The notes beneath the pieces were generated by a model. The model was not told the DNA's origin. It saw nothing but the letters and a program-made list of their open reading frames with translations, and searched no databases. This document shows, one piece after another, positions 7,851 through 58,330 of a stretch of 64,000 nt of DNA (positions are counted from its first letter, which is position 1; each line of letters starts with the position of its first letter). The stretch comes from Octopus vulgaris (taxonomy: Eukaryota). The position numbers and the translations under genes were made by a program. Location: positions 54,560,001 through 54,624,000 of the forward strand of contig OX597826.1 in assembly GCA_951406725.2 (NCBI GenBank), in the 5' to 3' direction.

Positions 7851-7909
7851 TATATACAGACATGACATTTTTATGTTTCAGGTTCTATATGTGACTGTTT
7901 AATCATACC

Positions 7910-8890
7910 ATGCACAAAAGAAGCCTTGCAACTGTCTAAATTTCAAAGACGCCGTATTGTAGGTCATTCTGAAGGTGGACATAGTCAGCGAAGAATTGCA
8001 GAAAACCTTGTGATCCCACTTTCTACAGTTAATAGAGTGATTGTGCAATTCACCAGAGAGGAGGAGTTCACACCACCCCGCACAGATCAACCAGGGCCCT
8101 CTGACAGGACCCTTCTCTTGCGTGGAGGATAATCCTTGTTGCAAGGCCTCTGACATAGCAGCACAAGTTGATATCAGTCCCAGAAGAGCTGTCAAGTATC
8201 TCCACAAACTTGGCCACTGTGGCAAAGCAGCAAGAAGGAAGACACTTCTACCAGCCAACATCAAGCAGAGGAAGGATTGGGCCAGTGAGATGGAGGAGAG
8301 GCCACTCGCATTTTGGGACGTTATCATATTTTCTGATGAGCTGTATTTCCCGACAGTGGTCGAGTGTGCGTCTGGAGACTCTGTGGTCAAGAATTTAATG
8401 GGAAAAGATTGCAGCCAACAATGAAACACGGCAGCTATTCTGTGATGGTCCGGGAAGCAATCTGGAGCAATGATTTATCAAAGCTGGTGGAGTGTGAGGG
8501 AAACAGAATCCCGGAAAAATATGTGTCCATTTTCCAGAACGGACTCCTTCCAATTTTTTCCAGTAGTGAAATATTTAAAGAAGTCTCTTTATTTATGAAA
8601 GATGGAACTCCTTGTTGCATGGCTAAAATAAACTAAAATTTGTTGGACGAAAATGGCATTAAAAAGCTTCCATGGCCAAGCCAGTCATCATATATGAACC
8701 TTATTGAACACTTCTTGGACATAATGGACAGGACACTTCAGAAAAGGAATAAGAAAGCATCTTCAGAGTTAGATCTTTTGAGATTACTGCGTGAAACTTG
8801 GCAAGAAATTCCGCAAGAGAATATTCGTCATCTAATCAGTAATATTCCAAATAGGCATTGATAAATGCAAAAGACTTCCGTAATAAATAT
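7910..8890 (+). pseudogene. Decayed Tc1-family (DD34E) transposase
   Basis: Across frameshifts: HTH region [40 protein letters not shown] and WPSQSSYMNLIEH. I count exactly 34 residues between the second D and the E. Stops and frameshifts are present. Confidence 0.9.
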
Positions 8891-14112: not shown

Positions 14113-14156
14113 ACACACGAAGAAGGCTGGAGGGTATATCAGCCGAAACGTTGTGT
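14113..14156 (+). ncRNA. Decayed PLE-type minimal hammerhead
   Basis: acac [ACGAAGA] a ggctgg-agggtata-tcagcc GAAA C GTT gtgt. Stems I and II are intact, palindromic AACGTT is present, and the CUGA is mutated. Confidence 0.55.
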
Positions 14157-32404: not shown

Positions 32405-32640
32405 ATTAGACAAAATGAGATAACAAAGCCAAAGTTGTGAGGAGTTTTCAGGACGTTTATAAGGAAAAAGATATAAATATAGTCTTACAGCTGTTTCTGG
32501 GATATTATGGATATCCCTTGATTAGAGACGGTGTGAGATGGTTAAATAGAAGTAAATATTTACTTTCGAAATAAGGAATTATTATGGAAAAGGAGGAGAT
32601 AGGGAATATAGAGGGAAATAAGAGAATGAAAGTAGAGAAT
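32405..32640 (-). mobile_element. Solo PLE-type terminal segment with decayed hammerhead (32482-32529)
   Basis: Homologous to 46349-46550. Minus strand: gtct CTAATCA a gggata-tccataa-tatccc a GAAA CAGCTG TA agac. TA runs flank both sides. Confidence 0.7.
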
Positions 32641-45858: not shown

Positions 45859-45904
45859 TTCTGTCTGTCTGTCTCTGTCTCTCTCTCTCTGTATATATAT
45901 ATAT

Positions 45905-46110
45905 AATTAATCAAAAAACAGAGAAAAAAGGACAAGAAAAACAATAACGTGAGGACGTGGTATATGCAGCGTATGAAGACCCCGAGAGAAGGAAAGAAAT
46001 GATGTTTTATGCTTGGTGCAAAGTTCTTCTTCAGAAACAGGAGACAGAGGAAAGTCCAAAAGAAAAGGAAGACGGAGGAAAAGAATCGCTAACAGTCCAC
46101 AGAGTACCTA
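45905..46110 (-). mobile_element. PLE-type terminal segment with decayed hammerhead (46004-46038)
   Basis: Minus strand: gttt CTGAAGA agaac ttt gcac CAAG CATA aaac; adjacent to (TA)n. Confidence 0.45.
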
Positions 46111-46397
46111 ATTCGGGGAACTCTTTCTGACATCGGATTATATTACCTTATTCATTCGGAGTTCGCCATTTCTGCACCTTGAATATATATATATATATAT
46201 ATATATGAGAGGCTTTGGTATCCAGAAGATCCAAAAGGCAGGTATGGCTATGTAAGTGCTACGGAAGGAGCAGTGTTAGACTCCCGGTTCGATAATAGTA
46301 TGAGTGAAGTGTCTAACGCGGGTCGTGTGTGAGCGTGTATATAAGTTAAATAAAATTAGGCAACAAAGCCAAAGGACATTTTATAAAGAAAAGGTTA

Positions 46398-46445
46398 GTC
46401 TTACAGCTGTTTCAGGGATACAAAAGATATCCCATCATCAGAGAT
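46398..46445 (-). ncRNA. Minimal type I hammerhead ribozyme
   Basis: tct CTGATGA t gggata-tcttttg-tatccc t GAAA CAGCTG TA aga; palindromic ACAGCTGT. Confidence 0.75.
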
Positions 46446-46624
46446 GGTTTGAAAGAGTTAAATAGAAGGAAATAGTATAGTTCGGTATAAGAAGTTATTT
46501 TGGAGAAGGAGAGATATAGGAAGTAAAAAGGGAAATATGAGAATAAAAATGTATATGTTGGATGTTAAGGTTGCTGTTCCATTATCCGAGGAATGTGTTG
46601 TCTTCTATTTAACTTTCTCGTATC

Positions 46625-46672
46625 GTCTCTGATGATGGGATATCTTTTATATTCCCGAAACGGCTGTAAGAC
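46625..46672 (+). ncRNA. Minimal type I hammerhead ribozyme
   Basis: gtct CTGATGA t ggga...tccc GAAA CGGCTG TA agac; predicted cleavage after 46668. Confidence 0.75.
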
Positions 46673-46774
46673 TACCCTTCTTTTTATAAAATGTCCAAGA
46701 AATTTCACACTGCTTTGGCTTTGTTGCTTCATTTTATTTTTATCATTATATATATATGTATTTCTGTGTGTGTA

Positions 46775-46819
<45 letters not shown>

Positions 46820-46820
<1 letters not shown>

Positions 46821-47221
46821 CTCTTTTACTCTTTTACTTGTTTCAGTTATTTGACTGCGGCCATGCTGGAGCACCGCCTTTAATCGAGCAACTCGACCCC
46901 GGGACTTATTCTTTGTAAGCCCAGTACTTATTCTATCGGTCTCTTTTTTGCCGAACCGCTAAGTGACGGGGACGTAAACACACCAGCATCGGTTGTCAAG
47001 CAATGCTAGGGGAACAAACACAGACACACAAACAAACACATATATATATATACATATATACGACAGGCTTCTTTCAGTTTCCGTCTACCAAATCCACTCA
47101 CAAGGCATTGGTCGGCCCGGGGCTATAGCAGAAGACACTTGCCCAAGATGCCACGCAGTGGGACTAAACCCGGAACCATGTGGTTGGTTAGCAAGCTACT
47201 TACCACACAGCCACTCCTGCG

Positions 47222-47223
<2 letters not shown>
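46820..47223 (-). mobile_element. SINE family A, full length
   Basis: Closely matches 18890-19289 and 58621-59015. Confidence 0.88.
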
Positions 47224-47266
<43 letters not shown>

Positions 47267-47953
47267 ATGGTATATATGTATGTCTATATATAGTAACGCG
47301 ACAGACACGACTTATTGATTCATGTAAAACCGAGTTAAAAATAACAGAGAACATCGTACTACTTGTTATGCAAAAACGGCGAGGCCATATTGAATTGAAA
47401 TAACCATCTATTTATTATACGTACTTAATGGATATATATCATAGCCAGACAAGTTGCTGTAGTATTTTCCTTGAGATGACACCTCTCATGGACGTACTAT
47501 GTAAAAAGCAAAGTAAATAACAGGGGTAGACGAAAATTCGTCTCAGTAGTAACCACAAGAAATGTTATGCTATCCCAGGAAGACTACTTCACTAACTTAC
47601 CTATCATCAATGTGTATACATTAAGTGTGATACATAGATGACTGTTACCATATTTTATCTTTTAAATTTCACTTGCTTCAGTCATTAGTCCGCGGCCATG
47701 CTGGGGCAGCCGCAAATATTTATTTTTTAGAGTCTGGTACTTGTTCTATTTGCTGTTATTTGTTTATTTATTTAGTTAGTTCTGTGACTGTCTGCCGATC
47801 ACATGACTTGCAGCTGAAAGAATTTGTCATCCAAATCACAAGGAAAAGAACTTTGGTCAAACAAAAGTTAAGTCGGAATAACTTTTGTTCTTTTAATTCC
47901 GCTTTCTTACAAATATTGTGACTGAGAAGAGGCATTGCTTTTTTCTTCTCTGT

Positions 47954-57681: not shown

Positions 57682-58330
57682 ATGGCGGATGAACGCTCAC
57701 CCAAACAACTGTTTTATGGCGAGCTTGCAGAGGGCAAAAGCAATCGGTGTAAACCTAATAAGAGGTTTAAGGACGGCATAAGGCCTACCATGAAGTCACT
57801 TGGAATGGATTCAAAGGCCATAAAAACCATTGCTTCGGATCGAATTGGTTGGCGAACAAAAGTGTGGAGCGTAATGAAAGATTTTGAGGAGATCAGGAGG
57901 ACACAAGCATAACTGAAGAGAGATTTAAAGAAGAATGTTGTAATCGAGAAGATGAATCTCAGTAACCTTTTTATATGTTCAGTTTGTGACAGACCACGTC
58001 TTTCTTTTGCTGGGTTCCAATCTCATTTGTGGACCCATAAAAAACGATCCTCCACCAATTACTATACCTATATATCTGTGCACACCTTTCAATGCCATGT
58101 ATGCTATAAGGTCTTCAAACCTAACGGAGGCCTCAAAAGACATCTTAAGTGCCACGAAGATCGGAACTTAACTGCAGATCTTGGTAGTCAAAATCAGGTA
58201 TGCAATCCATGTGGGTGTATTTTCAATACGATGTCTTGTTTAAAAAGCCAGATCAAACGCCATGATGGATTTAAGGTGTGAGTACAAGTGGTGGTTAGAC
58301 TCTGCATAAGGATTAGACAACCGCAACCGT
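57682..58330 (+). mobile_element. 5'-truncated RTE (BovB-like) LINE 3' end with three C2H2-type fingers and a (CATA)n tail
   Basis: RSPKQLFYGEL.EGK....KP.KRFKD...ASDRIGWR is a typical RTE ORF end. ORFs 57682-57912 and 57952-58281 are in one frame with a single stop between them. Confidence 0.85.

Follow-up and report, generated by a model that had tools for sequence, protein, structure and literature searches.

Cervera and De la Pena (2014) described dual minimal hammerhead ribozymes on opposite strands, 100–700 bp apart, in Schistosoma mansoni, and most such motifs are given there as solo relics of truncated Penelope-type elements (PLEs) (PMC4209133). Fig. S4A of the same paper depicts a PLE, truncated at its 5' end, where another hammerhead lies on the opposite strand. 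According to the parts of that paper compared here, the PLE-type hammerhead has a helix II of 7–8 bp, a helix I of 4–5 bp, and an unpaired letter after A9 (PMC4209133). PLE hammerheads cleave weakly, either as dimers (PMC4209133) or with the help of protein (PMC11167929), as far as these sources describe them. Craig et al. (2021) gave an inverted 5'-truncated copy, a one-sided tail of 30–40 bp, and a bias toward microsatellites as typical of PLEs (PMC8557442), and the relevant portion of a curation guide gives the same features (PMC8969392). Frangieh et al. (2024) reported on a purified PLE protein that, at AT-rich DNA, cleaves both strands and extends each of them; the protein is predicted to be a dimer, and reverse transcription begins at two internal RNA sites (PMC11167929). 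Opposite-strand hammerhead pairs and inverted 5'-truncated copies are thus published features of PLEs, as described in the portions of these papers considered here.

In this study, we analyzed a 64-kb window of AT-rich, microsatellite-laden animal DNA, possibly cephalopod to judge by the appearance of its repeats. An exact type I hammerhead pattern, scanned on both strands, has two matches in the window and none in each of 20 shuffles. The plus-strand core (46629–46668) contains CTGATGA at 46629–46635 and GAAA at 46657–46660, with the cut after 46668. The minus-strand core (46441–46402) contains CTGATGA at 46441–46435 and GAAA at 46413–46410, with the cut after 46402. Both cores are free of mismatches, and the two cut sites are 267 bp apart. 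Rfam returned no match at gathering score over the window, and the 34 weak matches in 45900–47300 include no hammerhead family. The hammerheads lie in two inverted arms (46348–46468 and 46602–46739) whose 3' ends point outward, as had been predicted originally, and the arms differ by 15 substitutions in 121 aligned sites (12.4%) and one 17-nt gap. The region is also non-coding, in line with the same prediction: the longest ATG-started frame in 46207–46739 is 55 aa, and Pfam gave no match in the three scanned frames over the element.

The boundaries differ from those proposed originally. The two arms had been taken as a 390-bp unit (46349..46738) with an internal spacer; both the "spacer" and the left flank belong to the minus-strand copy, and the insertion is asymmetric and about 533 bp long (46207–46739). 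The longer, minus-strand copy (46207..46601) is 5'-truncated at about 46601 and consists of a pyrimidine-rich leader, the hammerhead (46398..46445), an A/U-rich trailer, and a 140-nt 3' extension. Its left edge is placed by the adjoining (TA)n tract (46183..46206), with contig cover examined from 46208 only. The former spacer (46469..46601, minus strand, 133 nt) is the upstream part of this copy and is absent from the plus-strand copy. The 3' extension, or tail (46207..46347, minus strand), begins with an AC/TA-rich tract and is found in the minus copy only. Its predicted folding is at the level of shuffled sequence (z 0.08), and a tRNA-derived head in the tail is unsupported, ARAGORN having found no tRNA genes in the window. 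The shorter, plus-strand copy (46602..46739, 138 nt) is 5'-truncated 27 nt before the core, carries its hammerhead at 46625..46672, and retains a 17-nt segment (46696–46712). It ends at a TA-rich microsatellite (46740..46818). The two truncated 5' ends meet head to head at 46601..46602, where a (TA)n tract is missing, whereas every 3' end seen has one. Apart from (TA)n, no target-site duplication is visible at the insertion.

Several features near these boundaries were noted in passing. A 9-bp inverted repeat in the tail (46276–46317) has one mismatch at 46310, at which the family majority letter would restore the pair; possibly the element RNA conserves a stem here. The minus strand of 45890–46180, just past the left (TA)n tract, is pyrimidine-rich and has a CTGAAGA box (46034–46028) without a GAAA box. 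This may be another dead PLE end, oriented like the minus copy; no clear second copy of the stretch is present in the window, and no match to a second hammerhead family was obtained around 46030. The sequence after the right TA tract (46820–47220) belongs to another dispersed repeat; its first part matches at least eight other places in the window, and it may be a cephalopod SINE-like repeat.

Contigs from four public sequencing runs (X1, X4, X6, and X10, the last being an RNA run by our guess) were aligned to 46208–46762 at 80% likeness. The numbers of aligned contigs were 1470 (X1), 1212 (X4), 1820 (X6), and 194 (X10), and most were less than 95% alike; they are members of a large, diverged, high-copy repeat family. 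None of the 194 X10 contigs reached 99% likeness, and 17 were at 95–99%. X1 is possibly the source sample of the window, and its contigs are therefore not independent support for the locus itself. Family contigs occupy every bin of 46208–46601 in the four runs, with single contigs spanning 46209–46409 and 46409–46601, and a variant at 46569 is carried by 51 X1 contigs. The loose ends behind 46342 read on into the arm in 24 (X1), 21 (X4), and 27 (X6) contigs. Together, this cover and these loose ends indicate that the minus copy is about 395 nt long and reaches 140 nt past the former left edge. On the other side, the loose ends before 46604 in 20 (X1), 15 (X4), and 18 (X6) contigs enter the family's own upstream sequence, not the junction of this locus. 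The loose ends behind 46739 were excluded from the evidence, as they fit microsatellite-ending and tail-bearing copies alike. Pattern scans for the hammerhead motif found no loci in metagenome contigs and none in viral contigs. The sequence family was not found in print in the literature searched, a search to which Repbase and Dfam are external.

A window self-search identified a third, solo copy of the same family on the minus strand (32407..32640), 14 kb away from the inverted pair. It is flanked by two (TA)n tracts, its core is broken at G5 and G8, and it has neither the tail nor an inverted partner. The region of the minus copy that it matches (46338–46548) includes 80 nt of the former spacer. 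Between it and the left arm, 23 of 121 sites (19%) differ; for the right arm the figure is 31 of 137 (22.6%). The divergence between the two arms (12.4%) is smaller than that of this copy from either arm, which fits a single source element. The third copy keeps the 17-nt segment, and thus the indel between the arms is a deletion in the left arm. The three window copies have three different 5' ends, and two of them have their 3' end in common. None of the three is in tandem (head-to-tail) arrangement; a direct pseudo-LTR arrangement is likewise absent from the window, and several contig joints carry no stated direction.

Remnants of other elements were also observed in the window. A degenerate minimal hammerhead of a different family (14117–14152, plus strand) has two core mismatches, a stem II of 6 bp, a stem I of 5 bp, and a CG palindrome; the motif is followed by an A-rich stretch and is probably another PLE relic. 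A weak Pfam match to a Sleeping Beauty-type transposase helix-turn-helix (7866–8129, plus strand; E 1.1e-4, under the curated cut-off) is likely a Tc1/mariner remnant. A frame with C2H2-type zinc fingers (57913–58278, plus strand; zf-C2HE, E 7.6e-8) could represent either a host exon or the terminal part of a LINE ORF.

The junction between the two copies is nearly unique in the contig data. At 46599, a position that every copy sharing this junction has to cover, the summed contig depth in X1 is 110.8, compared with 37,885 at 46421 and 38,468 at 46620, an approximately 340-fold contrast in a quantity that is not copy number and in a run of which about 80% was covered. Single X1 contigs are about 40–60 deep, and the depth at 46599 corresponds to about two contigs. 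One contig (46405–46645, depth 53.8) spans the junction without a differing letter, is the sole spanner among the 32 pieces listed of 4,965, and is the locus itself. In X4, the depth at 46599 is 14.3, with one variant contig; X6 and X10 have no cover there, and such gaps are uninformative. A joint from 46554 to 46602 with undetermined letters between is present in one contig each of X1, X4, and X6; this could reflect a paralogue that has diverged but has almost this junction.

The head-to-head geometry itself recurs in the family. At least 6 of 10 distinct joints, read by eye from the 15 listed of 106 joints at 80% likeness, run antisense and then sense, all with different breakpoints (46236/46602, 46262/46695, 46504/46602, 46418/46625, 46439/46608, and 46515/46627). 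A strand change within the unique segment is seen at one more joint, 46518/46550 (X1 and X6). Four others (46420/46649, 46444/46652, 46483/46655, and 46525/46604) were dropped as inversions, for they also fit an ordinary copy with a deletion, an insertion, or an arm switch. The joints 46420/46649 (X1 and X4) and 46418/46625 (X6) contain additional letters at stem II that are self-complementary, a hint that helix II is much longer in some subfamily or that it holds a fold-back.

The inverted pair resembles the published pairs in its type I hammerheads on opposite strands, 7-bp helix II, short helix I, unpaired letter on the 5' side of stem II, palindromic helix III, and U-rich 5' flank; as in that work, most copies are solo, and the AGCU palindrome and UA cut site also occur in the Drosophila willistoni example (PMC4209133). 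It differs from the pairs in the compared part of that paper in its host and sequence family, in an extra letter before GAAA, and in that no ORF is left at the locus. It shares with EN+ PLEs, as these are portrayed in the portions considered, the 5' truncation, the adjacent inverted copy, the one-sided extension, the microsatellite or AT-rich site, and the lack of a clear target-site duplication (PMC8557442, PMC11167929). The extension here is about 140 nt instead of 30–40 bp, and both copies end within the terminal repeat, unlike in the EN+ PLEs described there (PMC8557442). The Penelope-type origin, minimal type I architecture, palindromic stem III, and inverted terminal segment envisaged in the original prediction are supported.

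Metazoan non-LTR retrozymes are also small, non-coding, and AT-rich, with a type I hammerhead, many copies, and a proposed PLE origin (PMC7229834; bioRxiv 10.64898/2026.07.22.740005, both as far as compared). They are head-to-tail tandems with canonical hammerheads that release circles in the account compared (PMC7229834), whereas the motif here is of the PLE type and each of its three copies is either solo or inverted. A tandem retrozyme was rejected on the arrangement of the window copies, none of the three being tandem. Viroid-like and ambisense circular RNAs have ribozymes in both polarities and extensive self-pairing. The locus resembles them in having one ribozyme per polarity and extensive self-pairing, but its two ribozymes mirror a single motif within linear chromosomal DNA; the 133 nt between the arms are unpaired, terminal redundancy is lacking, and a monomer could not be cut out. 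An ambisense viroid-like circle was accordingly rejected for a linear copy with no terminal repeat and a largely unpaired middle segment. A MITE or fold-back DNA transposon was also rejected: the junction is about two contigs deep in X1, the ends are asymmetric, and solo arms are common.

The two hammerheads had been described as intact. This is true of the 12 core letters on each strand, while the stems and the right palindrome are eroded. Stem I has 4 bp on the right and 3 bp on the left, where a pair is lost at 46445; the family majority letter at this position (72% of X1 depth) would pair. Stem II has 7 bp in both hammerheads, each with one G-U, and is weakened on the right (-4.7 kcal/mol, compared with -8.3 kcal/mol on the left). 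An unpaired U follows A9, and one extra letter precedes GAAA in all three window copies, which leaves the G10.1-C11.1 pair not flush with the core, as it is in the published consensus that the motif otherwise fits. Stem III is a perfect 8-nt palindrome in the left hammerhead and has one change in the right, to a letter present in about 3% of family depth. The palindromic helix III is predicted to form an 8-bp intermolecular duplex of -11.1 (left) and -9.7 (right) kcal/mol. The letters flanking stem II at 46636 and 46656 (mirrored by 46434 and 46414) are both A/T-variable in the family and mismatched in both arms, and could be a covarying A-U/U-A pair adjoining the core.

The combination of diverged arms and perfect cores, which the original prediction had singled out, stands as an observation (15 substitutions in 121 sites and a 17-nt indel), but the perfection of the cores does not exceed chance: two perfect cores are expected because the arms differ at only 15 of 121 sites, and the probability that these differences would spare 12 core letters is p=0.19. 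The ribozymes differ at 5 of 48 sites and the flanks at 10 of 73 (Fisher p=0.78). Among the 40 variants listed of 156, which are mostly differences between the locus and the family majority, none lies in the 24 core positions. Against the family majority letters and the loose-end consensus, 8 changes fall in the left arm and 7 in the right, all one-sided and without compensation. As far as the contig and arm data go, the composite is nearly unique and its cores are no better kept than their flanks, which agrees with two of the three outcomes named originally as refuting the prediction.

For RNA of either strand, the predicted fold is a long hairpin (-168.9 and -145.1 kcal/mol; z near -15). Of its 121 pairs, 7 are mismatched on the plus strand and 11 on the minus strand, and 27 pairs follow one another without a break; the 133-nt middle segment is largely unpaired in centroid folds. 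The antisense arm is transcribed first in both polarities. Its pairing with the ribozyme arm is computed at -90 to -99 kcal/mol, compared with -3.6 and -5.1 kcal/mol for the monomer hammerhead folds. The pairs of stem I and stem II have a probability of 0.000 in all six read-through folds containing the antisense arm, whereas stem II of the left motif has a probability of 0.78 without it. It is a fair prediction from these models that read-through RNA of either strand would bury its single ribozyme, as a by-product of the inversion, and the auto-inhibiting hairpin proposed originally agrees with the modeled folds. No circle is releasable because there is only one cut site per strand.

We consider the locus to be, with high probability, one old, decayed insertion of a PLE terminal repeat, derived from a truncated autonomous element or from a non-autonomous element that uses PLE enzymes. 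We infer the following course from the geometry of the two copies. A (TA)n tract would have been cleaved on both strands by a PLE protein. The two free ends would then have served as primers for reverse transcription of the element RNA from its 3' region, the first starting at 46207 and the second about 140 nt inward (equivalent to 46347). Both cDNAs would have halted early, at lengths of about 395 nt and 138 nt, and been joined at their truncated ends. The product would be two head-to-head copies with outward 3' ends, each with its terminal-repeat hammerhead and with unequal 3' ends and truncations. Neutral decay of about 6% per arm would have followed, during which the left arm lost 17 nt. 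Both ribozymes would then be passengers, each buried by the antisense arm and without a dimer partner, and presumably they do not cleave. The locus matches such a twin-priming product, including the (TA)n at both ends and the letters shared by the arms. These letters, which both arms have in common against the family majority, are at 46677 (mirror 46393), at 46360 (mirror 46727), and in the stem II loop. The twin-priming step was not found stated in the portions of the PLE literature compared. Three observations count against this explanation: the 140-nt extension as opposed to tails of 30–40 bp, the extra letter before GAAA, and the 46554/46602 contigs. Pfam gave no RT or GIY-YIG match in 181 window frames, and the PLE assignment thus stands without a linked RT/GIY-YIG ORF; judged by its sequence, the locus seems to behave as a PLE terminal-repeat insertion.

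The inversion might instead post-date the insertion, if the first family member was later joined by another that landed within it or next to it, or if DNA-level fold-back repair duplicated part of one copy. Insertion within or next to existing copies is ascribed to PLEs (PMC6765202), and an arm difference of 12.4% is also possible between two separate subfamily members. Nevertheless, the arms share non-majority letters, and the third copy is more distant from each of them than they are from one another. A (TA)n tract, seen at every 3' end, is missing at the junction, and the joined-5'-end geometry recurs in at least six other contigs. We therefore regard a later inversion as improbable, although it is the strongest of the alternatives.

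Less probable still is a small non-autonomous element, ambisense and retrozyme-like or MITE-like, that is copied whole. Such an element could account for the 46554/46602 contig with undetermined letters, found once per DNA run, for the X4 depth of 14.3 at 46599 with its one variant contig, and for the recurrence of head-to-head composites in the family. The X1 junction is at most about two contigs deep, however, and other inverted copies have other breakpoints, on which account the original prediction of a discrete ambisense unit moving as such is not upheld. Furthermore, the minus copy runs 140 nt past the end of the right arm, and thus the ends are not symmetrical terminal repeats; the arms are 12.4% diverged with a 17-nt deletion; no target-site duplication is present apart from (TA)n; and one cut site per strand yields no unit-length circle.

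The substitution spectrum bears on the same question and on editing by ADAR, which the original prediction had raised. The arms are free of A-to-G bias, 3 of their 15 differences being A-to-G on the plus strand. Over the whole insertion, changes from family to locus on the plus strand comprise 9 A-to-G and 2 T-to-C (p=0.066), counted among the variants listed; 34 of the 40 were entered, 27 of them with a share above 60%, and six were left out as low-share, duplicate-position, or X1-absent. Passage through edited plus-strand RNA could give such an excess and would favor copying of the whole composite. On the other hand, five of the nine A-to-G changes lie in the unpaired segment and only four in the paired arms, one of which is common to both arms, and some of the nine may be subfamily letters. 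We see no editing signature at the locus. It is conceivable, at a comparably low probability, that head-to-head composites are a routine product of twin priming and that a few are recopied as ambisense, self-inhibited, ADAR-edited hairpin RNAs, in which case the 46554/46602 contig would represent a sister composite that has diverged, and editing would have left its trace in the 9-to-2 excess. Least probable of all is retention of the hairpin by the host as regulatory double-stranded RNA, either an ADAR substrate or a ribozyme-gating switch: the hairpin from either strand is long (z about -15) with few mismatches and a 27-pair run, but such folding follows from any inverted pair, the differences are spread evenly over ribozyme and flanks (p=0.78), the changes are one-sided and not compensatory, and only 3 of the 15 arm differences are plus-strand A-to-G.

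On its own, the locus matters little, being a decayed transposon scar of a published kind. Such scars seed long hairpins, which could undergo editing if transcribed. The step by which inverted PLE structures form is still unexplained in those parts of the literature that were compared. The family described here has many natural inverted junctions with varied breakpoints and two 3' ends about 140 nt apart, and could therefore be used to test the twin-priming model.
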